From the NCBI GenBank assembly GCA_050633305.1, contig JBOEGF010000023.1:128001-192000 (forward strand): 64,000 nucleotides of DNA, written 5' to 3'. The DNA comes from Nannocystales bacterium (GTDB lineage Bacteria; Myxococcota_A; Polyangia; Nannocystales; Nannocystaceae). Shown here one piece after another: positions 15,768 through 32,144 of this stretch (positions are counted from its first letter, which is position 1; each line of letters opens with the position of its first letter). A program made the translations under genes and the position numbers. The notes below the pieces were generated by a model. The model made no database searches. It was not told the DNA's origin and worked only from the letters and a program-made list of their open reading frames with translations.

Positions 15768-17129
15768 TCACTCGACGACCGCGTTGCGGGCGATGACTTC
15801 GGCGTAGTAGTGCGCGCTGTCTTTGGGGAGCCGCTTCTGAGTCGTGTAGTCGACCCACACCATCCCGAAGCGCTGCGTGTAGCCGCGGTCCCACTCGAAG
15901 TTGTCGAGCAGCGACCACGCGAAGTAGCCGTGCAAGGGGACCCCGTCCTGAATCGCGCGTAGCGCCTGTGCAAAGTGATCGCGGAAGTATTGGATGCGGC
16001 GAACATCTGGCACCGCGCCGCCGGGCTGCGGACCTGTGTCGTAGCTGGCGCCGTTCTCTGTGATGTACATCGGCCCGGGCGCGTAGCTTTGGTGCACGCG
16101 TTGGAGCAGCGCCCAAAGGCCTTCGGGAAACACCTCCCAGCCCATGTCGGTCCACTCCTCCGGAGGCGTTTGGACAACTGTCGGCGGATCGTTGTCCGGC
16201 ACATCGGCCCGCTCCACCTTGCGGTAGTAGTAGTTGATGCCCAAGAAATCCGTGGGCACGGCTATCGCTTCGAGGTCTCCGGGGTGGACCCACGAAGCCA
16301 TCCCGTCGTCCGGGAGGCCGCCCCGGTCGATGTAGTCTCGGACGATGTCTTCGGGGTAGCCCTGCCCGTACAGCGGCTCGAGAAACCAGCGGTTGAAGGC
16401 ACCGTCTTCGTGGCGACGTTGCTCGCGGTCGGCCGCGCTGGAAGACGCTGCATCCACCGGCGCCAGGTTGAGCGTGATGCCGATTCGGGCCGAGCTGGGA
16501 AGAGCCTCACGGAGCCTGCGAGTCGCCCAACCGTGGCTGAGCAGGAGGTGGTGGCTGGCGCCAATGCTGGCCGCAAGATCGGTACGACCAGGCGCGTGGC
16601 GTCCGAACTGGTAACCGAGCATGGCGGCACACCAGGGCTCGTTGTGTGTGATCCAGTGCTGCACGCGATCGCCAAGCGCCTCAGCCATCGCCGTCGCATA
16701 GTCGACGAAGGCCGAGGCGGTGTCACGCACAGGCCACCCTCCGGCATCCTCGAGCGCTTGCGGGAGGTCCCAGTGGTAGAGGGTCACCCAAGGCTCGATG
16801 CCAGCCTCGAGTAGTTGGTCGACGAGACGCGAGTACACGTCGATGCCTTCGGGCGCGCAGGCTCCTCGCCCTTGCGGCATCACGCGAGGCCAGCTGATCG
16901 AGAACCGATAGGCCGCCAGCCCAAGCCGCTTCATCAGGGCCACGTCTTCATCCATGCGAGCGAGGTGATCGCACGCCACCGCGCCGTCGCTACCGTCTTC
17001 GACGGCTCCCGGAACCCGGCAGAAGGTGTCCCAGATCGAAGGGCCACGCGTATCTACAGCCCCTTCGATCTGATAGCTCGAGGTCGCAGCGCCCCACAGG
17101 AAGTTGGAAGGAAACGTTCGGTCATTCAT
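15768..17129 (-). CDS. bglA: GH1 beta-glucosidase
   Basis: FLWGAATSSYQIEG, YRFSISWPR, TLYHWDLP, HNEP (acid/base), ITENG (nucleophile), WSLLDNFEW. Confidence 0.97.
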   Translation of the reverse strand: MNDRTFPSNFLWGAATSSYQIEGAVDTRGPSIWDTFCRVPGAVEDGSDGAVACDHLARMDEDVALMKRLGLAAYRFSISWPRVMPQGRGACAPEGIDVYSRLVDQLLEAGIEPWVTLYHWDLPQALEDAGGWPVRDTASAFVDYATAMAEALGDRVQHWITHNEPWCAAMLGYQFGRHAPGRTDLAASIGASHHLLLSHGWATRRLREALPSSARIGITLNLAPVDAASSSAADREQRRHEDGAFNRWFLEPLYGQGYPEDIVRDYIDRGGLPDDGMASWVHPGDLEAIAVPTDFLGINYYYRKVERADVPDNDPPTVVQTPPEEWTDMGWEVFPEGLWALLQRVHQSYAPGPMYITENGASYDTGPQPGGAVPDVRRIQYFRDHFAQALRAIQDGVPLHGYFAWSLLDNFEWDRGYTQRFGMVWVDYTTQKRLPKDSAHYYAEVIARNAVVE

Positions 17130-18124
17130 GAAGCGAGAGGCTCCTCCGTGTCCGGCACGGGGTGAGGTCGATGACACGCGACGAAGCCCTGGGGACCCCG
17201 TTCGTGTAGAGGAACAGCGCCGGTCCGACACGCACCGGTTGCGCGAGGACAAAGCGATGCGAAGCAGCAACCCGTCGGCGGTGATGTGAGATCGGGTCGA
17301 TGCCCTTCGGGATTGCACAGCGGAGCGTCGGGCCGCGGCGCACCGGCAACCGAGCCGAGTAGCAGACGTGTGTAGGGATGTTGGGGTCGACCGACGATCT
17401 CGTCGGCGGGACCGTGTTCCACGATCTCCCCCGCGTACATCACCGCGATTTCGTCCGCCAGATATCTCGCGCTTGCGAGGTCGTGGGTCACGACCAGCAT
17501 GCCGATCGAGTGCGAGGTTTTGAGGTCTCGCAGGAGATTGAGGATCTCGATGCGAACCGAGACGTCGAGCATCGAGGTGGGTTCGTCGGCGAGGAGTACG
17601 TCGGGCTCGACGGCCAAGGCTCGAGCGATCGCGACGCGTTGCCTCTGCCCGCCAGAGAGTTCGAACGGTCGCCGGTCGATGTACGCGTCCGCGGGTTGCA
17701 GTCCGACGCGATCCAAGAGTTCCAACGCGGCCGCCCGAGCGTTTTGGCGAGAGGCCTTCCCATGGCGAAGCAATGGCCGTTTGAGGTGGTATTCGATGGA
17801 GTGCGCTGGGTTGAGTGAGGCGAACGGGTCCTGAAAGATCATCTGCACGCGTTGCCGGTAGGCCGGTTCGACTCGGCGGCCCAAAACCTCTGCCCCGTCC
17901 AACTCGAGACTGCCGGAGGCAGGATGAACCAGCCTCGCGATCACCTTGGAGACCGTGCTCTTTCCGCTCCCTGACTCCCCAACGAGCGCCAGAGCCCTCC
18001 CCCGACGCAGTGTCAGTGACACCCGATGAAGAGCCCGTAGCGTGCGGCCACGCCCTGCCGGATAGTCGACACAGAGTTCGTGCGCGCGTAGGAGCACGGG
18101 TGTTTTGGGAGTCGGAGCGTTCAT
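17126..18124 (-). CDS. Opp/Dpp-type ABC transporter ATP-binding protein
   Basis: GESGSGKS, LSGGQRQR, DEPT, HPYT, Cys-rich tail; ATGA overlaps on both sides. Confidence 0.95.
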   Translation of the reverse strand: MNAPTPKTPVLLRAHELCVDYPAGRGRTLRALHRVSLTLRRGRALALVGESGSGKSTVSKVIARLVHPASGSLELDGAEVLGRRVEPAYRQRVQMIFQDPFASLNPAHSIEYHLKRPLLRHGKASRQNARAAALELLDRVGLQPADAYIDRRPFELSGGQRQRVAIARALAVEPDVLLADEPTSMLDVSVRIEILNLLRDLKTSHSIGMLVVTHDLASARYLADEIAVMYAGEIVEHGPADEIVGRPQHPYTRLLLGSVAGAPRPDAPLCNPEGHRPDLTSPPTGCCFASLCPRATGACRTGAVPLHERGPQGFVACHRPHPVPDTEEPLAS

Positions 18125-19065
18125 CTTCGAATGCACGCGACGCAGTGGTCTGGGTTGAGGACGCGGACTGCCGGGCGGCCTTCCGTACAGGTGGGGTGGG
18201 CGTCGACGCAGCGAGGCTCGAACAGGCACCCTGGCGGGAGCGCGCGGGGGTCAAGCGCGGGACCCCCGATCCCTTCGAGGCGTGTGGTTGTCGTTTCGAG
18301 CGAGGGGAACGATCGCAACAACCCTCGGGTATAGGGATGCTGAGCGGCCGTTGCGAGTTCCGAGGCGGGGGCGACCTCGACGAGTTGGCCGCCATACATG
18401 ATGCCGATTCGCTGGGCAAACTCGAGGAGCAGGGCAACGTCGTGCGTGATGAACAGGATCGCGAATCCGATCGAGGCCTGTAGGTCGAGTACCCGGGCCA
18501 AGATCTCGCGTTGCACGACGACATCGAGTGCAGTTGTGGGTTCGTCCATGACGACGAGCTTGGGCCGAAGCGCCATCGCCATCGCCAGCGCCACCCGCTG
18601 CCGCATGCCGCCCGAGAGTTCGTGTGGATAGGCCGCGAGTCGCTCGGGTCCGATGCCGACCATCTCGAGCAGCTCGCCGGCGCGGGTTCGAGCTTCTGCG
18701 GGGGTGGGCGAGCCGTGGGCGAACAACACGTCCACCAGCTGGGCCTCGAGCGAGAGCACCGGGTTGAGCACGTCCATGGCGTCTTGAAACACCATCGAGG
18801 CCGTGCGCCATCGCATCGAGCGGAGCTCCGCCGCCGAAGCTTCGAACACGTCCACGTCGTCGAGCACGACCTCGCCGCCTGAGATGATCGCCGGCGGTCG
18901 GAGGACCCGCAGGATCGCCTTTGCGGTCGTGGACTTTCCGCTCCCCGACTCCCCTGCGAGGCCGAAGATCTCGCCCTCGCCGATACGGAATGAGACTCCC
19001 TTGACGGTGTGGTTCACCCCGCCTGGCCGCACGTGGTCGACATGAAGGTTGTGAACGACAAGCAC
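18121..19065 (-). CDS. Opp/Dpp-type ABC transporter ATP-binding protein
   Basis: GESGSGKS, YPHELSGGMRQR, DEPTTALD, HPYT. Confidence 0.95.
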   Translation of the reverse strand: MLVVHNLHVDHVRPGGVNHTVKGVSFRIGEGEIFGLAGESGSGKSTTAKAILRVLRPPAIISGGEVVLDDVDVFEASAAELRSMRWRTASMVFQDAMDVLNPVLSLEAQLVDVLFAHGSPTPAEARTRAGELLEMVGIGPERLAAYPHELSGGMRQRVALAMAMALRPKLVVMDEPTTALDVVVQREILARVLDLQASIGFAILFITHDVALLLEFAQRIGIMYGGQLVEVAPASELATAAQHPYTRGLLRSFPSLETTTTRLEGIGGPALDPRALPPGCLFEPRCVDAHPTCTEGRPAVRVLNPDHCVACIRR

Positions 19066-19955
19066 TATCGAGCCCTCAGAACAGGCGTGATGCCCGGTAC
19101 GATCTCTGCGCCTTGCAGCCGTTTTCGCCACGCGCGCTCGACCTTCAGGACCGGGTTGGAGATTTCGTCGATGCCGAAGTTCAGCATCACCAGCGCAAAG
19201 CCGACGCCCGCGACGCAGAGCCCTGGCGGCAAGAAGACCCACCACGACCCGATCAACAATGCAGCATCGTTGGTGGCCCAATACAGCGCGGTGCCCCATG
19301 TGACCTCGCCGATGTCGCCAAGCCCCAGGAACTCCAGACCGACCTGGGCCCCAAGCGCATACACGGTCGCGCTGATGAAGCAGGAGACGAAGAGCGGCAC
19401 CATGTTTGGCAGCAGCTCGAACAGCACAATGCGCCACGCGGGCTCGCCCAAGACGACCGCCGCCTGAACGAAGTCGCGTTTCCGCAGTGACAGCGCTTGT
19501 GCCCGCAGGATTCGGGCGTTCCACGCCCAGCCGGTCACGATCAAGACCAGTGCGATGGTCATCGGCCCCGCCGGGAGATACGCGGAGAGCACCACCGCAA
19601 GGGGAAGGCCCGGAATGATGAGAAGGACGTTGAACGAAAGGCCGAGCAGGTCGTCGACCCAGCCGCCAAAGTACGCCGCGGTGGTGCCCGCGAGCGCGCC
19701 GACCACCGTCACCGAAAGCCCCACGAACACGGCGACGGTTAGCGTCACGCGCCCGCCGACCAGGGTTTGGGCGAGAACGTCTTGTCCCTGTCCGTTGGTT
19801 CCGAGCCAATGAGCCGCGCTCGGGGCCTGGTGCGGAGCGGCCACAAACGCGGCCGGGTCCTGCGCGAAGAAGGGGCCGAGCACAATCATCGCGACGAAGA
19901 AGGCCGCAAACACAGCGCCAACGGCGGCTTTGCGGTTGGAGAGCATGCCTCGCAT
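19065..19955 (-). CDS. ABC transporter permease (OppC-like)
   Basis: HWLGT..GQDV, EAA-like loop DFVQAAVVLGE, multiple TMs. Confidence 0.95.
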   Translation of the reverse strand: MRGMLSNRKAAVGAVFAAFFVAMIVLGPFFAQDPAAFVAAPHQAPSAAHWLGTNGQGQDVLAQTLVGGRVTLTVAVFVGLSVTVVGALAGTTAAYFGGWVDDLLGLSFNVLLIIPGLPLAVVLSAYLPAGPMTIALVLIVTGWAWNARILRAQALSLRKRDFVQAAVVLGEPAWRIVLFELLPNMVPLFVSCFISATVYALGAQVGLEFLGLGDIGEVTWGTALYWATNDAALLIGSWWVFLPPGLCVAGVGFALVMLNFGIDEISNPVLKVERAWRKRLQGAEIVPGITPVLRAR

Positions 19956-19956
19956 G

Positions 19957-20943
19957 TCAGCGGCGCTCCTCGGTTCGCGTGCGAGGGTCGAGCCAGACGT
20001 ACAAGATGTCGACGAAGAGGTTGGCGGCCAGCACCGCGAACGTGATCGTCAAGAACAACCCCTGTAGTAGCGGGAAGTCTTGGTTGCGCACCGCCTGCAC
20101 GAGCAAGTAGCCCTGACCCGGATAGGCAAAGACGATCTCGGTGAGCAGCGAGCCGCTGAGCACGAACCCGAGCGCCATCCCAAACCCGGTGATGCTTGGC
20201 AGCATGGCGTTGCGCGCGACGTAGTGGACCAACACGCGCGTTGCGGAGATGCCCTTGGCTTGAGCGAGCCGGACGTAGGACTCCCCCATCACCGAGATGA
20301 CGTTGTTGCGCATCTGCAGCAACCAGCCCCCAAGCGTGGCGATCACGATCGTGCTTGCGGGGAGAATCGCGTGTCGGATCGCGCTGACGACAAAGTCCAG
20401 ATTCCACCCTGGCGCGACTGCTTCACCGTACGCGTGTCGCAGCGGAAACGCGCCCAGACCCAAGCCCAGGCTCCACAGCGCCAGCATGGCGAGCCAGAAG
20501 TAGGGGAAGGCCCCCAACACCGCAAACGCTGGCGGAAGGATTGCCCCCCACACGCTGTCCCGTCGCCACGCGGTAAGAAGGCCAAGCACGCTGCCGACCG
20601 TGAAGCTGACCACGACCGCGGTGCCGGCAAGGACGACGGTCCAGGCGAGACCGGTCCCGAGGACCGAGGACACGGGCGTGGGGAAGTATGAGACCGAGAT
20701 GCCCAAGTCGCCCCGCAGCAGATGCGAGAGGTACGAGAGGTATTGCTGCCAAAGGGGCGCGTCGGTGAACCCGAATGCTTCCTTGAGGGCCTCCACCGCC
20801 TCGGGTTGCAGCTCTCCCTGGAAACGCGCGACAAGGGCTGTCGCGGGGTCTCCCGGCATCATGCGCGGGATCAGGAAATTCAGGGTCAGCGCGACCCAGG
20901 CGGCCACGCCATAGAAAAACAAGCGTCGGAGAATGAAGCGCAT
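19957..20943 (-). CDS. ABC transporter permease (OppB-like)
   Basis: PGDP, GDLG.S, YVRLAQAKG, TEIVFAYPG.G, DFPL. Confidence 0.95.
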   Translation of the reverse strand: MRFILRRLFFYGVAAWVALTLNFLIPRMMPGDPATALVARFQGELQPEAVEALKEAFGFTDAPLWQQYLSYLSHLLRGDLGISVSYFPTPVSSVLGTGLAWTVVLAGTAVVVSFTVGSVLGLLTAWRRDSVWGAILPPAFAVLGAFPYFWLAMLALWSLGLGLGAFPLRHAYGEAVAPGWNLDFVVSAIRHAILPASTIVIATLGGWLLQMRNNVISVMGESYVRLAQAKGISATRVLVHYVARNAMLPSITGFGMALGFVLSGSLLTEIVFAYPGQGYLLVQAVRNQDFPLLQGLFLTITFAVLAANLFVDILYVWLDPRTRTEERR

Positions 20944-20946
20944 CGT

Positions 20947-22596
20947 TCAACGTGGCTTCAGCTCGGTGAGCACGAGCAGGGTTTCAGGGGTGTCGTTGGG
21001 AGAGAGCTTGGCGTAGGGATTGTCCGCGGTCGGAAAGCCGGTGAACCGGGCGTTGTTGAACGAGCCCCAGGACGGCCCAAGAAACAGAGGAATGACCGGC
21101 GCGGCCTCGACGAAGGACGCTTCGAGAGCGTGCGTGAGCCGCTCGACGTCGGCCGGGTCGAGCGCGGCCTCGAGCTCTTGCAACGTCCGGTCGGTTTGCG
21201 GGGACGAGAACCGGTGCCAGTTGCTTGCCGCGGGCTGACCAAGCGGAAGCTTCTGCGCGGAGCTCAGAAGGTTTCGGTAGAAGATGTAGGGCGAGGGGCC
21301 CTGGATCGACCACGCGATGCAGAGGTCGAACTCGCCCCGCTGGAGGCGGTCGAACCAGGCGGAGAAGTCGTAGGTCTTGACCGAGACCTGCACGCCGATC
21401 GTCTGAAGCTGCCTCGAGATGATCTGGGCCGCTCGAACCCAGTCCGACCAGCCGTTGACGACGTTGAGTTCCAGCTCCAACAGCTCGCCGTACGGGTCGC
21501 GAACGCGTCCTTCATCATCGCGGTGGTAACCGGCGGCCTCGAGTTCTCTTGTCGCGCGCGAGGGGTCGTACGTGACCCAGTCGCCCTGTTCGACCGCACC
21601 CGGGTCACGCAGTTGCGCGTACGCATCGCTCAACCCCGTGGCGTCAGCCGCCCGTGTGTAGTCGAACATCGCCACTTCGGCGAGCACGCTTCGATCGATC
21701 GCTCGGCTCAGTGCCTTGCGGACGGCGGCGTCCTTGAGTGCCGGGTGGGTGTTGTTGGGGTAGAGCATGACCGTGTTGCCCACGAGGGGGAACCAGTAGC
21801 GGTGGTGGGCCGGGTCGCGCTCGACGAACACGCGGTCGATCGCAGGCACGAAGTTCCCCGCCCAGTCGACTTCGCCACGAAGCAGACCCAGCGTCGCCTG
21901 GTCGTTGGAGGGCAGCGCCGGGAACCGCAGTGCCCGAACGGCCGGCTTACCCGGCTGCCAGTAGTGGGGGTTGCGACCCAGCACGTACAGCTGGTCGCGA
22001 AACGTTTCGACTTCGGTGAACGGTCCGGTCGCGACCGGGTTGGGGTTGGCGAAGGTGACGGGATCCTCGATGTCCCGCCACACATGTGCGGGCACGATCG
22101 GCTGATGAGCGATGTAGCCCAGCCCGGGCACGAATGGCTTCGAGAACCGAAACTCCACCTGCAAGGGCCCGCCAGCCTCGACGGTTTCGAGGAAGCTCGC
22201 GGTGTTGTTTAGATCGAGTGCCGGGTTCTCTCGCAACAAGGCGAAGGTCTGCACCACATCGTCGGCGGAAAACGGCTCCCCGTCCGACCAGCGAACCCCC
22301 GGCCGGAGCTCGAAGTGAAGGGTCTTGCCTGCATTCGACCACGCGTACGAGCGTGCGAGCCAAGGTACGTATGCTGACTTCAGAGTGTTGAAGACCAGCA
22401 GCGGCTCGTACACCCCGCCTCGGGTCGGCCACCGGGCGAGATCTTCGGCCACCAGGGGGTTGAAGTTCCGTACCCACGACGCTTGCTGCTCCTTGGACAC
22501 GGTGAGCACCCCGGACTCCACCGGGGAGACCGGGTCCGTGCACCCGCCTGCACCGAGCAGGAGACCGAGCAGGCTTCGCCGAAAGAAACGTCCCAA
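20947..22596 (-). CDS. ABC substrate-binding lipoprotein, family 5 (probably cello-oligosaccharide binding)
   Basis: Lipobox GAGGC, RNFNPL, YEPL, WSDGEPFSADDV, GWSDW; same operon as GH1. Confidence 0.92.
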   Translation of the reverse strand: MGRFFRRSLLGLLLGAGGCTDPVSPVESGVLTVSKEQQASWVRNFNPLVAEDLARWPTRGGVYEPLLVFNTLKSAYVPWLARSYAWSNAGKTLHFELRPGVRWSDGEPFSADDVVQTFALLRENPALDLNNTASFLETVEAGGPLQVEFRFSKPFVPGLGYIAHQPIVPAHVWRDIEDPVTFANPNPVATGPFTEVETFRDQLYVLGRNPHYWQPGKPAVRALRFPALPSNDQATLGLLRGEVDWAGNFVPAIDRVFVERDPAHHRYWFPLVGNTVMLYPNNTHPALKDAAVRKALSRAIDRSVLAEVAMFDYTRAADATGLSDAYAQLRDPGAVEQGDWVTYDPSRATRELEAAGYHRDDEGRVRDPYGELLELELNVVNGWSDWVRAAQIISRQLQTIGVQVSVKTYDFSAWFDRLQRGEFDLCIAWSIQGPSPYIFYRNLLSSAQKLPLGQPAASNWHRFSSPQTDRTLQELEAALDPADVERLTHALEASFVEAAPVIPLFLGPSWGSFNNARFTGFPTADNPYAKLSPNDTPETLLVLTELKPR

Positions 22597-22758: not shown

Positions 22759-22786
22759 TCATCGGTCCGGCGTGTCCTGTGCCACT
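22759..22786 (+). promoter_or_regulatory. Putative ECF promoter type A: TCATC-N18-CCACT
   Basis: Preceded by an A-tract; upstream of the sigma54 activator gene. Confidence 0.7.
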
Positions 22787-22831: not shown

Positions 22832-23950
22832 GTGGGGACCGTCGTGGAGGAGAACGTGCAGCAGACCACCGGCCAGAGCTTCATCTCGGATTCAGGGCCC
22901 GCTCCTTTCGACGAGGCCCCCTCCCCACGACTCGAGGAAGGGTTGGGGCGGGTGATCGGAGCATCCCCCGAGATTCGCCGGATCTATCCGCTGTGCAAGC
23001 GATTGGCGGAGTCGAATCTACCGGTCGTGATCTCGGGGGAGACCGGGACTGGCAAGGAGCTGCTGGCCGAGTCGCTCCACGAGCTCAGCCCCCGTGCCAG
23101 TCGGCCGTTCGTGGTCCTGGACTGCACGGCGATCCCCAAGAACCTCGTCGAGTCGGCGTTGTTTGGACACGAGAAAGGAGCCTTCACGGGCGCGACCCAG
23201 GCTCGCCGAGGCGTTTTCGAGGAAGCCCACGGCGGCACCTTGCTTCTCGACGAGATCGGGGACCTCGAGTTCGATCTCCAGGCCAAGCTGTTGCGCGCGC
23301 TCGAACGCAACGAGATCAAGCGCGTCGGTTCGACGCGACGCGTCCACGTGGACGTGCGGATCATGGCCGCAACGCGTCGCGACCTCGCCGAGATGGTCCG
23401 CGAAGGACGCTTTCGAGATGACCTGTACTTTCGACTCGCAGTCACGCAGGTCGAGCTCCCCCCGCTGCGGCAGCGAACGGGCGATGTGCGCCGCTTGGCG
23501 TCCACGTTCTGGCAGCGGCTTCAGCCGAACACGCCGATGCCCGACACCCTGCTGCCCCGCCTCGAGGCCCGTAGCTGGCCCGGCAACGTCCGTGAGCTGC
23601 AGAATACGGTCGCTCGCTGTGCCGCCTTGGGAGAACTTGCGTGGACGAGAGGGACCGGGGCTCAGGAACACCTGGCACATGCGCCCGCGCCCGCGCCCGC
23701 ACGAGCTCCAGCCGCCGCCGCTCCCGAAGCAGGCTTGGAAGCGAACATGCGGGACTGCTTCGAGGAGATTCTCGGGCGGGGCCTTCCACTGCCCGAAGCA
23801 CGCAAGGAGCTGGTCCGGCAGTTCGAGCGCAGCTATGTCGAGCGCGCGCTCTCGGAGAGTTCGGGGTGCGTGTCGAAGGCCGCCGAGGCGTCCGGAGTGG
23901 GCCCGCGCTACTTCCGGATGATCCGGGCGCGCTCGCGCAAGTCCAGCTGA
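22832..23950 (+). CDS. Sigma54-dependent enhancer-binding protein (AAA+/Fis-HTH) without N-terminal sensor domain
   Basis: GETGTGKE, GAFTGA, LLLDEI, FRDDLYFRL, WPGNVREL, C-terminal HTH; only about 37 aa precede the AAA+ domain. Confidence 0.93.
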   Translation: MGTVVEENVQQTTGQSFISDSGPAPFDEAPSPRLEEGLGRVIGASPEIRRIYPLCKRLAESNLPVVISGETGTGKELLAESLHELSPRASRPFVVLDCTAIPKNLVESALFGHEKGAFTGATQARRGVFEEAHGGTLLLDEIGDLEFDLQAKLLRALERNEIKRVGSTRRVHVDVRIMAATRRDLAEMVREGRFRDDLYFRLAVTQVELPPLRQRTGDVRRLASTFWQRLQPNTPMPDTLLPRLEARSWPGNVRELQNTVARCAALGELAWTRGTGAQEHLAHAPAPAPARAPAAAAPEAGLEANMRDCFEEILGRGLPLPEARKELVRQFERSYVERALSESSGCVSKAAEASGVGPRYFRMIRARSRKSS

Positions 23951-24003: not shown

Positions 24004-25788
24004 TCACCACCAGAACGTCGCGCGGATCATGAACACGTCTTGATCCGGGATTCGGGTCGGCGCGCCGCGATTGCCGGAGTCCTGGTTTCCCGTCGTCGTG
24101 CCGAAGCCATCCGGGGGAACGGCTGCCGAGGGCGGCTGAACGCACAGTTCTGCATCCCCGCCCATGTCGCAGTTGCGCACGTTGTACATGTAGCGCGAGT
24201 ATTGAAGCGAGATCTCCTCTCGGGACAGCCACGCGGTTCGGAAGACCATCCGCGGAGACACCACGGCAAAGGACTGTTCGGGAACGCGCGAGTTGGGCTG
24301 CACGCGATCGTAGCGAGCCCCGACCCCAAACCAAGACAGCGCGCTGAAGAGACCGTTGATGCCGTACTTCATCTTCAGCACGCCATCGACATCCGGGTCA
24401 TCGCTCGCGACCTTGTTGAACATGCCGTAGAGCTTCAGCGAAAAGTCCATGCCCTGGCCGTAGAACGAGTCGCCCTCGAGAACGCGACGAACACTCTGCT
24501 CGTACTGCGCCATCACCGAGTAGATCTCGCCATTGCCGTTGCTCGCTCGCTGCGGGCTGTTGAGGTAGTTGTCCACGATCCCGAAGGTGAACTGCCCGCC
24601 TCCCCGGGAGTGAATGACCTCGATCGCGGGGCCGACGACGCCAGCGGAGACGGCCTTGATGTACGAGAACCCGGCGTAGAGGTAGCCGATCTTTCCCCAG
24701 TCCACGCGAAGGTCCGGCCCCACGACGGTCATCGTTCCGTCGGGCGCATCGACATTCTGTTCGCCGTCTCTATCCTCCTCGCGTGCAAGCGCCTGGAGGT
24801 AGTGCGTCCCCACCTCGATGTTGTCCCGGTACGACAACCCAACATGTCCGTGGTGAAGGAACGTGAATCGGGCGGTGTTGAAGATTCGGGGGTCGGGACG
24901 GCTGGTGCCGATCCCGTGCTCGAAGCTGAGGGTGAAGTCTTTGAGAAGGAACTCGACCTCCCCGGCTTCCCCAATCGCGTGGGTCCGGCCGAACAGATAG
25001 GTGTCGAGCTCTCCTGCGTCGTACCGCCCGGCAGATCCGTATCGGTTGTCGAACGAGCCGATCTTCCACATGAGCCGGACGTTCTTCGCCTTGAGGTTCG
25101 GCGTGAGCGTGACGAACCCCTGGGCGATACCGAACTGAGCGTTGTCTTCCTTCCACGCCGCGTCGGTGAAGTTGAAGCCCTGCAGCGAAACCGTGCCGGT
25201 CGCCACGCTGTTGCCATAGCTGAAGTACAGCTCGGACCAATCTCGCGGGTTGTGCTGCGTGTACTGGTAGCTCAGGTATTGGTCGTCGGGGATGACAGGG
25301 TAGTGCAGCGTTCGCTCGCTTTGCCCCTCAGCCGGCTCGTCGCGCTGACCGACCCCCAGCCGCATGGGCGCACGAATGTAGCCGTGAAAGTCGAAGCCCC
25401 AGTCTCCACCTTGGTCTTGGTCGTCTCCCCCCCCACGCGAGCTCAGGTTGCGACGCTGAACGCGTCCTCGTCCTTTCTTTCGTTCCCGGCTCGGAAACGC
25501 GTTGGGACGGGAGGTCGGTACCGGCGTCCCGGCGGTGTTCGACATCTCCACGGTGGGGAGCGCCGCGCGGTTGTCGACCACGGGCTCGGAGGTCTCGGAC
25601 GGTTCGTCGGGGGCCTCGCCGGTGGGGTCCGCTGGGGCGTTCACTTCCGCCGTCGCGTCCTCGGTCGCCACCGGGGTCTCAGCGGCAGTCTCGGTGTCGG
25701 CAGCGGCCTCCACCTCTGGCGATGCGGGAGCTTCCTCCGGCGCAGGCTCGACGAGCGAGAGAAGCATCGGCAACAGTGCAACGTTCAT
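24004..25788 (-). CDS. Hypothetical outer-membrane beta-barrel protein (candidate carbohydrate porin)
   Basis: Signal peptide, acidic P/E linker, FDFHGYIR (resembles LamB strand 1), aromatic-rich strands, C-terminal RATFWW; ATGA overlap with GH9. Confidence 0.7.
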   Translation of the reverse strand: MNVALLPMLLSLVEPAPEEAPASPEVEAAADTETAAETPVATEDATAEVNAPADPTGEAPDEPSETSEPVVDNRAALPTVEMSNTAGTPVPTSRPNAFPSRERKKGRGRVQRRNLSSRGGGDDQDQGGDWGFDFHGYIRAPMRLGVGQRDEPAEGQSERTLHYPVIPDDQYLSYQYTQHNPRDWSELYFSYGNSVATGTVSLQGFNFTDAAWKEDNAQFGIAQGFVTLTPNLKAKNVRLMWKIGSFDNRYGSAGRYDAGELDTYLFGRTHAIGEAGEVEFLLKDFTLSFEHGIGTSRPDPRIFNTARFTFLHHGHVGLSYRDNIEVGTHYLQALAREEDRDGEQNVDAPDGTMTVVGPDLRVDWGKIGYLYAGFSYIKAVSAGVVGPAIEVIHSRGGGQFTFGIVDNYLNSPQRASNGNGEIYSVMAQYEQSVRRVLEGDSFYGQGMDFSLKLYGMFNKVASDDPDVDGVLKMKYGINGLFSALSWFGVGARYDRVQPNSRVPEQSFAVVSPRMVFRTAWLSREEISLQYSRYMYNVRNCDMGGDAELCVQPPSAAVPPDGFGTTTGNQDSGNRGAPTRIPDQDVFMIRATFWW

Positions 25789-28130
25789 GGATTGGCTCCG
25801 CTCGTTTCATCGAGGAACGCAAGGACCCAGACCAAGGGAGCGTTCCAGTTGATCGCGATCTCGTTGGTGGACCAGGACTCGATGTGGTCCACGAAGCACC
25901 GCTGCGCCGGACACCCTCCAAGTCCCGCCGACTTCGCATAGGGGTCCTGAATCGCGGAGTTCGGACCGCCCGAGACGATCCCCGGCGGCGGCCCCGGATA
26001 GTCTGGGTCTTTCTGTTTGGCCCAGAATCGGTGGTGTGGGTTTTCCAGGGGGTTTGCGCCGTACCCGGTCACGTACGACTGCCACACCGGGTTGCGACCG
26101 AGGATGTAGTTCATGGCCTCGGCGGTCGCGTCGAGCAGGGCGTCGTCCTTGGAAAACGCGTAGCCCAGGCCCAACACCACCGCGTTGTTGAGCACGAGTG
26201 AGTTGGAACCCCAGGGGTAGTTTCCGGCGCCATCGGGGGCAAGCGGCACGCGATACCCCTCGCGCTCGACCTGCTTGGCGATCGACCGCGCGACTGCCAC
26301 GACAGCCTCGCGTGCTGCCTTTGCGTCCGCTGGTGCTCGCCTAGCGCCGGCCGTCGCGAGCGAGAGTGTCCCCAAGGATCCAACGAGCTGCCAGTTCATG
26401 GGCGCCGCGTGTCCCCCCTGTGCCCGCGTGGGTCCCAGCACCACGCCAAAGTGCTCGCCCTGTGCGTCCTTGCGGTACTGCGCGTCTCCGGTCGAAAGGT
26501 ACAGCTCGATTGCTGCCCAATAAAACTCGTCGGAAACTCGGCTGTCTTCGTACGGCCCGCCGCCCACGTTGTCGTCGCCAGAGGCGTGGAGGTCGGGAGT
26601 CGTCTTTGCCGCAGCATAGGCGCGCTTCGAGGCGGTCAAGCATCGACGGGCGAACGTGGGGTCGATCGTTTCGTACACCCGCGCGGCTTGGGCAGTCACC
26701 GCTGCGAGATTCAGCGTTGCGGCGGTACTCGGCCGGTGGAGGAAGCGTTTGTCCGTAGCGTCGGGCGGGGACAACGGCAGGCCCGCCCAAGCCTCCTCGT
26801 GCACCTTGTGAAACGCCATGCCGGCCCACTTGGGGTGTCCCGCGGGCACCTGCATCCTCAGCAGGAATTCGAGCTCCCAGCGGACCTCGTCCAGCAGGTC
26901 GTTGGTGCCGTTGCCCGACTCGGGGATGTTCGCCGTTCCGTCGGCGAACGCGTTCGCTCCGGCGCCCACTTCGGTCATGCGCTCGTAGGCGTTGAGCAAC
27001 GTCCACACCGCGATTCCGGCGTTGACGACGTACTTCCCGTGATCGCCGGCGTCGTACCAGCCGCCAGAGACGTCAAACGTTCCCGTGCAGTCCAAGGCGG
27101 GTTGGCAGGAAACACTCCGGTCACTTTGATGCCCAGCGCCACGAGCCCACCGGGCCTCGCCGGCAAACGGCATCGCGATCTCGGTGCCGCTGCGGTTGTG
27201 AAAGAAGAAACGCAGCGCGTCGAGCTTCATCGAGCGGTAGAGGTGCCCTTGGATCGCGAACGCATCGCTCTGCTCCTCACCTACCCGCACGACGTAGCCC
27301 TCGCCCGTCGTTTTCACCGAGCTGAAGTCGACCCAGTGGACATGCTCTCCCGACCCCACATCGGGCCCAAAAACGGTCGTCATGCCTGTCGCCACCTCGA
27401 CGCCCTCGGCATCCAACAGAGCCCAAGCGACCGGTATCTGGCCGGGGTCACGCAACGTCGCGAACTTGGGGCGCGATGGCAGGTAACCCACCTGGTTCAC
27501 GCGAATCGGGGGGGCACGCAAGTGGTCGGGCGGTGGAGGCGGCGTGTATTCGGGGTCCGAGAGCGCCACGTCATCGAAGCAAACGCGCGTGGGCACCTTT
27601 GCCGCGAGTGGCCCGCCCATCAGGAAGCTCAGCTCTGCGGCATCGTCCTCACCCCGCATGATGAAATGCCCCACAAATCGCTGCGGCTCGGTGCCGACCT
27701 CGACCTGGCTGGCCCAATACTCGTCGTACGGCGGGCCCACCTGCGCGACCTTGGGCCACAGCTGAGTGGGTGGTGTTGCGCTCGCGCTGAACTCGACACG
27801 GTACGCGTGTCCGGCGGTCAGCGTGAGGGCACGATGACGGACTTGCGCATCCCAGGCGGTTTCTCCCCCCGCGTCCAAGGCGACACACAGCGCCCCGTCA
27901 TCAAGCTCAGCCCGACCGCTGGCAAGCTCGACCATCGACGCTTTCCAGGGCGCGAGCGTTCCATCTTCGAACGCACCGTTGCGGATGAGGTTGTGGTCGC
28001 CGTCGATGATCGGAGCCGGCCCGTCATCGTGAACGGTCGCCACCGAGGCAGAGCCCGGCGCGTTGGAAGCATCCGCCGCACCGCAACCGGCAACGAGTGC
28101 GAGGAGAAGGGCTGGGTTGAAGGTCTTCAC
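25785..28130 (-). CDS. GH9 cellulase lipoprotein (CBM4_9 + Ig-like + GH9)
   Basis: Lipobox LVAGC, NLIRNGAFE (CBM4), IRVNQVGY, GGWYDAGDHGKY, NPHHRFW, NEIAINWNAPL. Confidence 0.95.
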   Translation of the reverse strand: MKTFNPALLLALVAGCGAADASNAPGSASVATVHDDGPAPIIDGDHNLIRNGAFEDGTLAPWKASMVELASGRAELDDGALCVALDAGGETAWDAQVRHRALTLTAGHAYRVEFSASATPPTQLWPKVAQVGPPYDEYWASQVEVGTEPQRFVGHFIMRGEDDAAELSFLMGGPLAAKVPTRVCFDDVALSDPEYTPPPPPDHLRAPPIRVNQVGYLPSRPKFATLRDPGQIPVAWALLDAEGVEVATGMTTVFGPDVGSGEHVHWVDFSSVKTTGEGYVVRVGEEQSDAFAIQGHLYRSMKLDALRFFFHNRSGTEIAMPFAGEARWARGAGHQSDRSVSCQPALDCTGTFDVSGGWYDAGDHGKYVVNAGIAVWTLLNAYERMTEVGAGANAFADGTANIPESGNGTNDLLDEVRWELEFLLRMQVPAGHPKWAGMAFHKVHEEAWAGLPLSPPDATDKRFLHRPSTAATLNLAAVTAQAARVYETIDPTFARRCLTASKRAYAAAKTTPDLHASGDDNVGGGPYEDSRVSDEFYWAAIELYLSTGDAQYRKDAQGEHFGVVLGPTRAQGGHAAPMNWQLVGSLGTLSLATAGARRAPADAKAAREAVVAVARSIAKQVEREGYRVPLAPDGAGNYPWGSNSLVLNNAVVLGLGYAFSKDDALLDATAEAMNYILGRNPVWQSYVTGYGANPLENPHHRFWAKQKDPDYPGPPPGIVSGGPNSAIQDPYAKSAGLGGCPAQRCFVDHIESWSTNEIAINWNAPLVWVLAFLDETSGANP

Positions 28131-28864
28131 TTGGCGTCACACCCGTAGAACGAGACATCGTCGATCCAGATGTCGAACTCGGTCTGCGCCGCGTTGAACT
28201 GAAACTGGACCCCATAGATCGCGGCGCTGTCGATGCTGCCCGGCCGCGGCGCCCCCCATCCGGGCATCTGCTTCATCGAGTCGAACGGCACGACGAACTG
28301 CTGCCAGTGCTCTTCGAGTTCGACCGCCTTGCCGAAGTCGTTGAAGCACTCTGTGCACTGACCACCCTCGGCGTCGGTCGAGACGTCGGGGATCTTGACG
28401 CGAAGCGACGCACCACTGTTCGCGCTCCTGCGGGCGAAGAACGTGATGCCCTCGTAGGCGCTTGCGTCGTAGGGCGCCTTTGGGTCGACGAAGTTGAGTC
28501 CGTAGCCGGCGAAGACGATTGTCCCGGCGGCTGTCTTTCCCTGGAACCTCGCGGCGTGGAGCGACCCGTTCGCCCCTCCCACGGCCTGGGAGAAGGTTCC
28601 GCCGAGTCGTCCTGCGACCGGCTCGACCGTGGAACCCGCTTCGTCGAGGAAGGTGTAGACGTATCCTCCGCGCCCGCCGTGTTCGAGCAAACGGTGGTCG
28701 TTGTCCTCGCTATCCTCGATGACCGCGGATCGGTCGCAACCGCCGAGGTCCATGCGAGAGACCGCGGGAGCCGGCTCGGACGTTCCGCCCGAAGAGGCCG
28801 AACACGAGGCCAGAGCCACAACGAGGACCAAGGGGGTGATGCGGGAACTCATCTCGACTTGCAT
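28127..28864 (-). CDS. Lipoprotein with CBM11-like domain (paralog of 14803-15684)
   Basis: Lipobox ALASC; IEDSED..YTFLD..YDASAYEG..WQQFVV..DDVSFY. Start could be 28852 or 28870. Confidence 0.78.
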   Translation of the reverse strand: MQVEMSSRITPLVLVVALASCSASSGGTSEPAPAVSRMDLGGCDRSAVIEDSEDNDHRLLEHGGRGGYVYTFLDEAGSTVEPVAGRLGGTFSQAVGGANGSLHAARFQGKTAAGTIVFAGYGLNFVDPKAPYDASAYEGITFFARRSANSGASLRVKIPDVSTDAEGGQCTECFNDFGKAVELEEHWQQFVVPFDSMKQMPGWGAPRPGSIDSAAIYGVQFQFNAAQTEFDIWIDDVSFYGCDAK

Positions 28865-28879
28865 CGACACACTCTTCGA

Positions 28880-29461
28880 CTAGAAATCGACGCAGTAGCC
28901 GAACATCGCCACTGCGCCGGGTGCTAGGGCGGCGTTGAAGTCGACCCCGGAGAAGGTCGCCAGGCCGTCGACGACATCTTCGACCACGACGTTCCAGGAC
29001 TGGTTGAGCACACCGCCGATGTCGAGATCGATCACCCACGTAATCGACATCTCCGAAACGTTCGTGACGATGACGTCGTTGCACTCCCCGGTCTCCCACG
29101 CGGTCTGCTGCATCACCTGAACCTCGAGCAAGCCGTCGTTGCTGGTCTCGAAACTGCCCGAGCTCGAGCCTCCGACCTCCGAACTTCCGGTCCCTCCGGT
29201 GCTCGTCGAGCTCTCTTCGCTCGGTGCCGAAGAGGAGGAGGTCGTGGTGGTTGTGCTCGCCGTCGTCGACGTCGTCGTGGTCGTCGTGGTCGTCGACGTG
29301 GTGCTCGCGCTCGAGGTCGATCCGGTTCCCTCCACAGGAAGTTCCGCGGTGTCCGAGTTGCTCCCGAACACGGACGGCCCATCGGTCCGAGGTGCTCCAA
29401 CGCACCCGGGCAGCGAGACCGCCATGCAGGGGAGCGCGAGCCAGATCGAGATGCGCCGCAT
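28880..29461 (-). CDS. Lipoprotein with Thr/Ser linker and C-terminal CBM2-like domain
   Basis: Lipobox SLPGC, poly-T/S linker, WETGEC..VTN..W..QSWN..FNAALAPG..FGYC. Confidence 0.8.
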   Translation of the reverse strand: MRRISIWLALPCMAVSLPGCVGAPRTDGPSVFGSNSDTAELPVEGTGSTSSASTTSTTTTTTTTSTTASTTTTTSSSSAPSEESSTSTGGTGSSEVGGSSSGSFETSNDGLLEVQVMQQTAWETGECNDVIVTNVSEMSITWVIDLDIGGVLNQSWNVVVEDVVDGLATFSGVDFNAALAPGAVAMFGYCVDF

Positions 29462-29477
29462 GACGAGAGAGTTCAGA

Positions 29478-29493
29478 AGCACGCGCCGTGCCA
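29478..29493 (-). promoter_or_regulatory. Putative sigma54 promoter (TGGCACG-gcgc-GTGCT) of the CBM2-CBM11-GH9-porin operon
   Basis: GG-N10-GC spacing with near-consensus; about 17 nt before the ATG. Confidence 0.75.
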
Positions 29494-29565
29494 TGACGGA
29501 ACAACCCGAGGTTCGTGTCGTTGGCGCACAGACCGGATCGCAGGCTTCCCGGAACCGGAAGCGTC

Positions 29566-29621
29566 CGTTCCCTTGCCGGAGCCGACCGAACCCGCTCGAC
29601 CGCCGGAAGGATCGTTTCCGC
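29566..29621. promoter_or_regulatory. Putative activator-binding region including CGGAA-N7-TTCCG (29604-29620)
   Basis: Aligns with 22641-22696 in motif content and spacing. Confidence 0.55.
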
Positions 29622-29784
29622 TTTCGGTTCGACGACCCACGCCGGGGCTCGACGGACGTCTTCGGCGCGGGCGACTCCGACGCCGGACTGGACCGCCCTT
29701 TGCACTGAAGCCAACCGAAATGGACTCTCGAGCGGTGCAACTCTGTCCGACCCGCGACTGTGCGCAGGTGCGAGCGACAGCCCG

Positions 29785-30282
29785 ATGATCATCGTGGTCG
29801 TCGGGGTTTGCGGCTCTGGAAAGAGCACGCTGGGGAGGGCGCTCGCGCGGCGTCTTGCAGCGCGATTCCACGATACGGACCACCGACGGCCGGCTGGAGG
29901 GTCTGTGTCCGAATGGCTCGGACCGGTGGCAGACGTCCTTCAAGCCCCAGGGCCTCGCGAGCACCTGGTCGTCGCCTGCAGGGCCCTGCGCCAGGAACAA
30001 CGCGATACCCTCCGCCGAGCGTGCGGTCAGCTTCGCCTCGTCTTCGTCCACCCCTCGTCGCTCACGCTGGCGGAGCGGTACGATGTGCGCCGGCTCCAAA
30101 CCATGGGGCGGGTCCCTTTGCTCGCCGCGCAGTTGCGGGACCTCGAACCCCCCAGCCCCCGAGAGGGCGCGCTGTTTGTCGACAACGAGGGGCCGGTCGA
30201 AACGGTTGCGGACCGGGTCGTGGCGTCTTTGATGCTCGATGCCTCCGCGTCGCTCGACCTCCAGCGCCGCACGGACTCGTGA
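29785..30282 (+). CDS. Gluconokinase-like (GntK/IdnK family), divergent
   Basis: MIIVVVGVCGSGKST, VVACRAL, QLRDLEPP. Confidence 0.8.
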   Translation: MIIVVVGVCGSGKSTLGRALARRLAARFHDTDHRRPAGGSVSEWLGPVADVLQAPGPREHLVVACRALRQEQRDTLRRACGQLRLVFVHPSSLTLAERYDVRRLQTMGRVPLLAAQLRDLEPPSPREGALFVDNEGPVETVADRVVASLMLDASASLDLQRRTDS

Positions 30283-30328
30283 CCCCCGCCCTCTTGCACC
30301 GCTCTCCTCCCTTCGCCCAGGAGGCCTC

Positions 30329-31408
30329 ATGTTGACGGCGACTGCCGTGGGCGCTTGCCTCTGCGCGCTGTTGGTCGTGCAGCCACCCGAGCCGGCGGCT
30401 CCCCGACCGACCCGCGTCGAGCTCGGCCTCGCCGCCGAAGACGAGCTGTTGAACGATCAGGACGTGGAGCTGACGCTCGCAGCCCATCTCGCCGACGCCG
30501 AGCTCCACGCCCATGTCGACGCCCTGGGCCCCGGCGATCTGTTGGACCGCATCGCATGGGCCGAGGCCAACGTGGACGCCGACGTTCTGGCCGTATTCTT
30601 TACGGAGCGCGTCGACGATGGCGGGCGCCGCCTGTATCTGCTGGAGCCGCAGAGCGGCGGGCTGTGGGTCCGGGAACTACCCCGCACCGCCGATGACGAC
30701 CTGCTCCTCGAGACCCTGGGCGCGATGGTGCGCGGAATCTCGACGGCGCTGCATGAGGGGCCGCCGCGCGGCATGACTGAGGTCGCGCGTCCCGACCAGA
30801 TCCAGCCCGACTCCGACTCCGACTCCGAGCCGGTTGCTCCCGTCCAGCCTGCGCCGGATCCCGAGCCGGTTGCTCCGCCGCCCCGGACGCTCGTGACGGT
30901 CACCGGGGCGTACCTCGGCAGCATGTTCGCCCGGACGCACCCCTGGCAAAGCGGAGGCGCACTCGGGGTGAACGTGGAGCTGCCGGCCCACGCTGTCCTT
31001 GGCATTCGGGTCGGGGTGTTTGCCCCGGCTCGGGTCGGGGGCCCACCGGACCTCGATATGTGGAGAATCCCGGTTCGGCTGCACGGGGCGTATCGATTCC
31101 TGACCCGCTCGGACGTTCGCCCCGAAATCGGCTTGGGCATGGTGGTGGGCACGCTCACCTGGCGCGGCGCGAAGGCTCAGGCCGGGTCAAACGCGCAGCC
31201 GGGGCAGGCGGTGCGAATCGCGCTCTCTCCGCAGGCTGGGATCCAGTGGAGAGTCGTGGGCGGGCTCGGGGTTCACCTCAACACGATGCTGGACGTGTGG
31301 CTGTCCAACGCGGACCTCGTTGTCGAAGATGGTTCGGCGCGCCGTTCGCAGCTCCGCCCGTACGCGGTCACCGTGGCGCTCGAGGCGGGCCTCCAATACA
31401 CATTTTAG
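30329..31408 (+). CDS. Hypothetical exported protein: N-terminal domain, Pro/Asp linker, C-terminal beta-barrel
   Basis: AGGAGG RBS, signal peptide, terminal EAGLQYTF. Confidence 0.75.
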   Translation: MLTATAVGACLCALLVVQPPEPAAPRPTRVELGLAAEDELLNDQDVELTLAAHLADAELHAHVDALGPGDLLDRIAWAEANVDADVLAVFFTERVDDGGRRLYLLEPQSGGLWVRELPRTADDDLLLETLGAMVRGISTALHEGPPRGMTEVARPDQIQPDSDSDSEPVAPVQPAPDPEPVAPPPRTLVTVTGAYLGSMFARTHPWQSGGALGVNVELPAHAVLGIRVGVFAPARVGGPPDLDMWRIPVRLHGAYRFLTRSDVRPEIGLGMVVGTLTWRGAKAQAGSNAQPGQAVRIALSPQAGIQWRVVGGLGVHLNTMLDVWLSNADLVVEDGSARRSQLRPYAVTVALEAGLQYTF

Positions 31409-31508: not shown

Positions 31509-32144
31509 ATGACGCTCGCGCACGCAGCTCTGACGTGGGATTGGCCGATGGCTGAACCCGTCAATGTGCACGCGATCGATCTCGCGCTCGCCGAAGCCGC
31601 GGCTCGCAAGGAACCCGAAGCGTCCCGTGTCCTCGCCGCCCGTGCCTTGCGGCTGGTGCGGCCGATCGTTCGCTCGATTTGCTCGGACCGGTCCGAGCAA
31701 GACGATGCGCTTCAGCTCGCGCTCATGGAGGTGCTGCGGGCGACCGGGAGTTACCGCGGAACAGGTTCCCTCGACGGTTGGATCCGACGCATCTCAACCC
31801 GCGCTGTGATGCGTGACGCGAAGAAGAACCGGACGTCACGGATGCGCGTCGAGAGCACGGACACTCCGTACAGTCGCGAGGGTGTTTCGATGAACCTGAC
31901 GATGCTCGAGACGCTCCCGCGTCCCCTCGAGTTCTACCTGGGCGCGCTTCCTGAGGCCCAACGGGTCGCACTGGTTCTGCGACATGCAGTCGGACACAGC
32001 GTCGTCGAGGTCGCCGACATGACCGCGGCACCCGTTCCCACGGTCCGATCCCGGATCAAGAAAGCACAGCAAGAGCTGCGCCGACTCATCCAGCGCGACC
32101 TCAACCTCGGCCTCTCCGCAACGCAGGGGATCAAGACCTCATGA
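31509..32144 (+). CDS. ECF RNA polymerase sigma factor
   Basis: DDALQLALMEVL, YRGTGSLDGWIRRI, LPEAQRVALVL, SVVEVA..PVPTVRSRI. Confidence 0.93.
   Translation: MTLAHAALTWDWPMAEPVNVHAIDLALAEAAARKEPEASRVLAARALRLVRPIVRSICSDRSEQDDALQLALMEVLRATGSYRGTGSLDGWIRRISTRAVMRDAKKNRTSRMRVESTDTPYSREGVSMNLTMLETLPRPLEFYLGALPEAQRVALVLRHAVGHSVVEVADMTAAPVPTVRSRIKKAQQELRRLIQRDLNLGLSATQGIKTS

Follow-up and report, generated by a model that had tools for sequence, protein, structure and literature searches.

How do the products of cellulose digestion cross the outer membrane? To our knowledge, this passage is poorly documented in cellulolytic Gram-negative bacteria that have neither cellulosomes nor SusC-type systems. 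The question is raised by a gene in a 64,000-nucleotide stretch of a Nannocystales genome (assembly GCA_050633305.1, contig JBOEGF010000023.1, positions 128,001 to 192,000), which we call the window. The gene, an open reading frame (ORF) at 24004..25788 on the reverse strand, encodes a 594-residue protein without a Pfam or NCBIfam family. An original prediction had described it as an uncharacterized outer-membrane barrel coupled to a GH9 gene, and as a candidate cellodextrin porin that supplies a nearby ABC binding protein. We find that the protein is modelled as an 18-stranded barrel whose best structural matches are LamB and ScrY, that its gene closes an operon of overlapping genes for two lipoproteins, and that cellulose-related genes recur beside its relatives. 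Taken together, these observations suggest that the barrel is probably a LamB-type specific porin for cellobiose and cellodextrins, co-produced with two lipoproteins, one that binds glucan and one that is an exocellulase resembling CbhA.

Operon structure and predicted fold of the barrel protein

The barrel gene is the last of three coupled genes on the reverse strand. The first (28127..28870) encodes a 247-residue lipoprotein with an ALASC lipobox and no Pfam family, and the second (25785..28130) a lipoprotein with an LVAGC lipobox and, by Pfam, CBM4_9, CelD_N (Ig-like), and GH9 domains. Each junction is a 4-nt overlap, GTGA between the first gene and the GH9 gene and ATGA where the TGA of the GH9 gene meets the ATG of the barrel gene, which has a GGAG 7 nt before it. 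The nearest solved relative of the GH9 protein is the Ig-GH9 module of the Clostridium thermocellum cellobiohydrolase CbhA (E 4e-157); no endoglucanase scores better than E 8e-79. The 247-residue lipoprotein, modelled from an alignment with 31 relatives (pLDDT 87), is a beta-sandwich that best matches CBM11 and CBM30 of clostridial cellulases; the best match of all, CtCBM11, was solved with a mixed-linkage beta-1,3-1,4 tetrasaccharide. The idea that this lipoprotein is a copy of the N-terminal CBM4_9 of the GH9 protein was rejected (BLASTP E 0.37).

An AlphaFold2 model of the barrel protein was built with an alignment of 42 sequences. Residues 1-127 are disordered in it and are followed by 18 long strands within residues 131-593, as counted in the DSSP string; the predicted barrel takes up residues 126-594 (24007..25413, reverse strand). 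Over the whole 594-residue model, 124 residues have a pLDDT of at least 90 and 217 lie at 70-90, mostly in the barrel. When the model was compared with the PDB by Foldseek, the first ranks were held by LamB (1mal, E 3.4e-9; 8xcj; 1mpr) and ScrY (1oh2, 1a0t). VIA-align, run against 48,161 chains, gave the same two proteins, LamB 1mpr (Z 22.5, with an rmsd of 4.1 over 350 aligned residues) and ScrY 1a0s (Z 22.2). They are followed by Wzi (Z 19.2), by the 16-strand general porins at about 18 (17-18.6), by the OprD family together with E. coli ChiP (16.5-18.4, with E. coli ChiP at 16.5), by VhChiP (17.3), by AlgE (15.8), and by OprB (14.4); BtuB and SusC reach only Z 11.9-13.5. A structure search of the same protein in the ESM Atlas also returned LamB clusters, at TM 0.67-0.74. 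Other barrel classes were compared as well. No Plug or TonB_dep_Rec match was found among Pfam families, and the 18 modelled strands fall short of the 22 of a TonB-dependent transporter; the protein likewise has no Pfam match to the OprB or OprD/ChiP families, whose structural scores lie below those of LamB and ScrY.

Both ends of the predicted barrel resemble those of LamB. The first-strand motif FDFHGYIR (residues 132-139, 25372..25395, reverse strand) is the counterpart of VDFHGYAR, with which the mature LamB of E. coli K-12 begins and which holds the greasy-slide residue Y6. At the other end the protein terminates in ATFWW, and its FWW (24007..24015) is the counterpart of the LamB IWW that includes greasy-slide W420; mature K-12 LamB ends in EIWW. 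Outer-membrane barrels typically end in an aromatic residue. The structural alignment spans residues 133-594 of the model and 1-427 of LamB, and DFHGY and the terminal WW therefore stand at matching ends of the two barrels. Among the 42 aligned relatives, G136, C540, C549, and W593 are invariant; position 137 is Tyr in 33 and Phe in 9, hence aromatic in all 42, R139 is Arg in 35, and W594 is Trp in 41. From the alternation of residues, Y137, R139, and W593 are each placed on the polar side of their strand, and we take that side to line the lumen in the model. We propose that they correspond to LamB Y6, R8, and W420, where Y6 and W420 are judged from the motif and from the ends of the structural alignment, and where R8 is a residue that we take to belong to the polar track of LamB.

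The loops and strands of the barrel are conserved in a way that bears on its selectivity. In the predicted extracellular loops L1, L3, L6, and L8, conservation equals or exceeds that of the strands, as would be expected of a specific channel more than of a general one. Of the three loops that fold into the barrel of LamB and form its constriction, L1 (residues 149-182, 34 residues) and L6 (381-419, 39 residues) are long here, and L3 has only 11 residues. Invariant histidines or charged residues also occupy many positions within the strands. The loop between strands 17 and 18 (residues 536-583), which is likewise predicted to lie outside the cell and whose model has low confidence at 554-575, carries Cys540 and Cys549 near its start (24142..24171, reverse strand) in the sequence NCDMGGDAELC (residues 539-549). 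The features on which the original prediction had relied, namely translational coupling to GH9, a LamB-like first strand, a terminal TFWW, a loop with a Cys pair, and the absence of a TonB plug, are thus all present. It had also pointed to many Trp, Tyr, and Phe residues; together they make up 13.2% of residues 126-594 versus 14.5% of mature LamB, a content that is porin-like but not unusual.

Ahead of the barrel lies an N-terminal extension (residues 1-125, 25414..25788, reverse strand), disordered in the model, of which Ala, Pro, Glu, and Thr make up 49%. It holds a semiconserved motif, ALPTVxMxNxAG..P.SRPN.FP, and a stretch rich in basic residues and Gly just before the barrel. The protein begins with a short hydrophobic stretch, MNVALLPMLLSLV, that contains no basic residue. 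Canonical signal peptides are found in the Polyangiaceae relatives, and the hydrophobic start without a basic residue is shared by the window protein and its close kin. The open frame reaches just 6 codons upstream, so the gene has no longer alternative start.

The family to which the protein belongs has so far been found only in Myxococcota. The protein has no Pfam match at E ≤ 10 and no NCBIfam match at E ≤ 0.1. A word-indexed search gave 434 matches from Nannocystaceae, Polyangiaceae, Minicystis, Paraliomyxa, and other Myxococcota, and every named one is a "hypothetical protein"; an exhaustive search extended the family to 551 clusters at 50% identity. Fifteen distant members, scanned in the same way, have no Pfam family either.

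Gene neighborhoods and distribution of the family

For the study of gene context, we scanned one genome per species, which yielded 221 relatives of the barrel, and kept the best 79 loci. Neighbors within 8 kb were counted by tblastn with representative neighbor proteins, and their Pfam names are those of the cluster representatives. A cellulose-related gene lies near the barrel gene in 57 of the 79 loci. The CBM11-like lipoprotein is found in 49 loci, GH9 in 41, a paralogous CBM lipoprotein in 36, a GH94 phosphorylase in 23, GH5 in 15, MFS transporters in 13, GH1 in 10, and an SBP_bac_5 protein in 4. Gene order varies around this association. The order CBM-GH9-barrel is that of the window and 7 further loci (L001-L006, L069), the order barrel-CBM-GH9 is that of 8 Polyangium, Byssovorax, and Minicystis loci, and a convergent GH9 gene is present in 4. 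Three loci, from Nannocystaceae ST9, Enhygromyxa salina, and Plesiocystis pacifica, have the CBM11-like lipoprotein and GH9 fused in one ORF of 841-997 codons (L010:3043-6033, L012:1687-4680, L020:1378-3903); because some relatives fuse both genes, the blastp clustering merged the CBM lipoprotein with GH9. The linkage is kept through rearrangement and through a change of inner-membrane transporter, which indicates that the barrel is tied to the hydrolase side of the system and not to one importer.

The last point qualifies the original prediction, according to which the barrel feeds the ABC binding protein of the window. Genes for SBP_bac_5 and ABC proteins are indeed nearby, but they lie outside the operon of the barrel, with a convergent sigma-54 activator gene in between, and SBP_bac_5 recurs in just the 4 loci counted above. 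The barrel is not generally linked to such an ABC system; elsewhere, its position is filled by MFS transporters and GH94. Other proteins recur locally. A protein of ∼526 residues without a Pfam family is encoded directly upstream of the barrel in eight loci of Polyangium, Byssovorax, and Minicystis (L009, L011, L013-L017, L072). In five Polyangium loci (L009, L011, L013-L015), it is preceded by a PD40-repeat protein of ∼647 residues; the Byssovorax loci, too, are flanked by a PD40 gene. Both proteins may be further parts of the system in those loci.

We also asked how the family is distributed, using the barrel-family profile and PF00759 to search 201 interrelated genomes of the class. Barrel and GH9 occur together in 47 genomes, barrel alone in 29, GH9 alone in 12, and neither in 113, so that presence of the barrel tracks GH9 across genomes as it does within loci; a stricter filter was applied in the barrel search, which makes these counts lower bounds. 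Of the 29 genomes from the family of the source organism, 10 encode the barrel, 9 of them together with GH9. The 11-Mb source genome contains a single copy, and some genomes have up to 9 matches.

Twelve loci (L083-L094) were then fetched from genomes that are barrel-positive and GH9-negative; the absence of GH9 was the criterion of selection and is uninformative. All 12 carry by tblastn a GH15-like gene of ∼770-840 codons, often directly upstream of the barrel gene, with a weak Pfam GH15 match in 8, and several also carry sugar-type ABC genes (BPD_transp_2, Peripla_BP_4). In a FastTree phylogeny of 93 rows, the 12 distant members form one clade with support 100, and the other 81 make up the clade of cellulose contexts. 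The distant clade retains G-Y-x-R-A-P-x-R in the first strand; its C-terminus, judged from the one member in which it is intact, is QVSF rather than WW. With the GH15-like gene in all 12 of its loci, the distant clade joins the GH9 clade in pairing barrel and hydrolase, and the pairing therefore characterizes the family as a whole, as would suit a set of sugar channels whose substrates differ from clade to clade.

The source genome encodes a further porin, which does belong to PF02264. This protein of 573 residues scores 64 bits (G000:C18:309000-320000; L082: 5247-6968, reverse strand), has a coiled-coil-like N-terminal extension, and is encoded directly upstream of a GH13 alpha-amylase-family lipoprotein on the same strand (L082: 3354-5219). 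Judged by sequence, the PF02264-GH13 pair appears to be the equivalent, for starch, of the pair formed by GH9 and the barrel.

Proposed uptake route and rival readings

Several other genes of the window could take part in uptake. On the far side of the sigma-54 activator gene (Sigma54_activat, HTH_8; 22832..23950, forward strand, convergent with the barrel gene) lie, on the reverse strand and by Pfam, an SBP_bac_5 binding protein (20947..22596), two ABC permease genes (19957-20943 and 19065-19955), an ABC ATPase with ABC_tran and oligo_HPY (18121..19064, with an approximate start; the match covers residues 270-541 of ORF 18121-19809), and a GH1 beta-glucosidase domain (15768..17120; residues 469-915 of ORF 15768-18524). 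The nearest solved relatives of the binding protein are Vibrio chitin-oligosaccharide binding proteins (E ∼2e-89), followed by Thermotoga oligosaccharide binders. We note that the 918-residue ORF 15768-18524 is probably not one gene: GH1 is confined to its C-terminal half, and its upstream part overlaps ORFs 17126-18229 and 18121-19809, both in the ATPase region. By blastp clustering, 12 loci have a close relative of the sigma-54 activator near the barrel; by tblastn, up to 20 do. A TGGCAC-N5-ACGC site (22770-22784, reverse strand) is located beside the activator gene, ∼175 nt upstream of the binding-protein gene; the sigma-54 promoter pattern TGGCAC-N5-TTGC with 2 mismatches has 60 matches versus 58 expected, and we do not count such sites as evidence.

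On its upstream side, the three-gene operon is set off by a terminator-like hairpin (28888-28919) from a gene at 28880..29740 (reverse strand) with CBM_2-bearing relatives, where the Pfam match was obtained on a relative in the same blastp cluster (L005:3926-4768) and not on the window ORF. Farther out, on the forward strand, a 389-residue protein without a Pfam or NCBIfam family (30239-31408) and a TPR protein (32141-33412) flank the locus, and both recur in 6-7 related loci.

In the route that we propose, both lipoproteins would face outward. The CBM11-like lipoprotein would hold beta-glucan chains, from which the CbhA-like CBM4-Ig-GH9 lipoprotein would cut cellobiose or short cellodextrins, and the barrel, presumably located in the outer membrane, would pass these through a lumen of conserved aromatic and charged residues. 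In the source genome, the periplasmic SBP_bac_5/ABC system and the GH1 beta-glucosidase could complete uptake; in relatives, MFS transporters and the GH94 phosphorylase may fill that role. The barrel has no plug or TonB box, and transport through it would hence be passive.

A number of observations weigh against this route. Most concern the relationship to LamB. The greasy slide of LamB consists of Y6, Y41, W74, F227, W358, and W420 (PMC3509688, PMC3558487), and a counterpart in the barrel protein could be assigned to only two of these six positions, Y6 and W420. A profile search with the 42 sequences found no porin among PDB sequences, and PF02264, searched against the genome at E ≤ 10, misses the barrel gene and instead matches the 64-bit porin described above (cutoff 25.1 bits). 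BLASTP of the barrel and LamB reaches only E 0.099, and the best segment is the one around the DFHGY motif. The hhalign probability is 0.8% against E. coli LamB, 0.8% against a 13-sequence LamB alignment that is shallow (at least 80% identity) and makes a weak test, and 2.5% against the PF02264 protein of the source genome. The best 120 matches to E. coli LamB are all at least 77% identical to it, which leaves the LamB profile shallow, and a more diverse profile might still link both families. We describe the protein as having a LamB fold with two motif-level correspondences, and we do not call it a member of PF02264. The remaining points are of other kinds. The N-terminus of the window protein is a weak signal peptide, lacking a basic residue. 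No cellulose gene was found in 22 of the 79 loci, of which 12 have a flank of <4 kb and 10 have full flanks. GH9 is missing from 29 of the 76 barrel-positive genomes, of which the 12 sampled all carry the GH15-like-linked clade, and the relatedness of the census genomes means that the co-occurrence counts overstate independence. Lastly, the closest solved relatives of the binding protein bind chitin oligosaccharides, so that the sugar is not settled by that gene.

The same data can be read in other ways. The barrel might be a docking platform or export partner that holds or displays the GH9 and CBM11-like lipoproteins on the cell surface, while the passage of solutes would be secondary or would not take place. 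Such a role would suit the 4-nt overlaps of the three genes, which suggest production in fixed proportion, the cohesion of the trio despite rearrangements in about half of the related loci, and the conserved 125-residue N-terminal extension, which has no assigned role; in addition, Wzi, the third-best structural match, is an 18-strand barrel that binds carbohydrate and does not transport it. However, the best matches are sugar channels, conserved charged and aromatic residues occupy alternate strand positions and loops as in specific porins, and the distant clade is coupled to another hydrolase and to sugar ABC transporters, which fits transport. We regard docking as unlikely. That the protein is a general diffusion porin of Polyangia, adjoining cellulose genes by chance, seems to us quite unlikely, given that the family occurs in only 76 of the 201 class genomes and 10 of 29 in its own family, that its presence tracks GH9, and that the single copy in the source genome sits within the GH9 operon. 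Its extracellular loops are conserved and its modelled strands number 18, not 16, although 16-strand general porins do match the model at Z 17-18.6. This reading also draws on the genomes with up to 9 matches and on the 10 full-flank loci where no cellulose gene is near.

Two further readings keep a sugar as the solute and change its identity or its direction. The barrel could import another beta-linked oligosaccharide, such as chito-oligosaccharides or mixed-linkage glucan fragments, as the chitin-oligosaccharide binders nearest to the SBP_bac_5 protein and the tetrasaccharide in CtCBM11 would suggest. We consider this very unlikely: the conserved neighbors, namely the CbhA-like GH9, GH5, GH94, GH1, and the CBM_2 protein, are related to cellulose or cellobiose, and no GH18, GH19, or GH20 was found among the 23 neighbor-cluster representatives scanned. 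A role in glucan export, such as AlgE, BcsC, or Wzi might suggest, is the least credible of these readings, and we think it extremely improbable. The structural matches do include AlgE (Z 15.8) and Wzi (Z 19.2), and endoglucanases do occur in cellulose-synthesis operons, yet no glycosyltransferase or synthase is present among the recurrent neighbor clusters, and the neighbors are catabolic enzymes and importers.

A bolder version of the system can also be drawn, as a TonB-independent, porin-centered counterpart, in Myxococcota, of the polysaccharide utilization loci (PULs) of Bacteroidota. Both lipoproteins would assemble on the LamB-fold barrel and deliver the end of a glucan chain or long cellodextrins directly to its aromatic slide, so that single cellulose chains would be threaded across the outer membrane instead of being fully digested outside; sister clades would do likewise with other hydrolases, such as the GH15-like enzymes. 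We offer this picture, all parts taken together, as speculative and on balance rather doubtful. A specific porin for cellobiose and cellodextrins is the reading that we prefer.

Relation to known systems

No paper describing the barrel family was found by full-text searches on cellodextrin porins, on myxobacterial cellulose, GH9, or porins, or on the Sorangium outer membrane. In the main text of a 2025 survey of myxobacterial carbohydrate enzymes, the terms "outer membrane" and "transporter" are absent (PMC12093494), and in passages of a 2026 review devoted to glycoside transporters, porins come up for maltose alone (PMC13543919). The family, with its 551 clusters and no Pfam or NCBIfam model, is a concrete candidate for this uptake step, tied to GH9, GH94, GH5, and GH1 over Polyangia. 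If the proposed function is right, LamB-fold porins would gain a cellodextrin-specific member, loci for cellulose uptake in myxobacteria would gain an annotation marker, and a simple passive module would be at hand for engineering the uptake of cellobiose or cellodextrins into Gram-negative hosts. The coupling to GH15-like genes suggests a broader rule of hydrolase-porin pairing in the phylum.

Among known systems, the PULs of Bacteroidota, which combine SusC/SusD with surface lipoproteins that bind glycan and a surface hydrolase, resemble the window in that genes for a glycan binder and a hydrolase, both lipoproteins, adjoin a gene for a barrel of the outer membrane, and resemble the barrel family in that the module recurs over a lineage with different hydrolases, here in GH9 and GH15-like clades. 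They differ from it in the barrel, which in the window has 18 strands and neither plug domain nor TonB box, and no SusD-like gene was seen. The ChiP system of Vibrio comes closer in its logic: beta-1,4 oligosaccharides are freed by a hydrolase that is secreted or sits on the surface, enter through a dedicated porin, and are handed to an ABC importer by a binder of the SBP_bac_5 type, the window binding protein being closest to the chitin-oligosaccharide binders. ChiP itself, in contrast, is a weaker structural match to the barrel (VhChiP Z 17.3, E. coli ChiP 16.5), and the window enzymes are cellulases rather than chitinases. Within the source genome, the PF02264 porin offers the same arrangement of a sugar porin and a hydrolase lipoprotein on one strand; it is set apart by its 64 bits on PF02264, its coiled-coil-like N-terminus, and an hhalign link to the barrel of only 2.5%.

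The nearest likeness is to LamB and ScrY. No homology to either was detected by sequence methods, the last extracellular loop of the barrel carries a Cys pair, and the partner genes concern cellulose rather than starch or sucrose. Like ScrY, the barrel protein has an N-terminal extension before the barrel, although its 125 residues are rich in proline and acidic residues and disordered, not a coiled coil. The two known proteins nonetheless share with it the 18 strands, and two aligners, run independently, rank them first among its structural matches. With LamB it further shares a first strand of the form DFHGYxR and a C-terminal WW, at the places of greasy-slide Y6 and W420, and, just as lamB belongs to the mal regulon, the barrel gene stands beside the enzymes and transporter of its presumed sugar.

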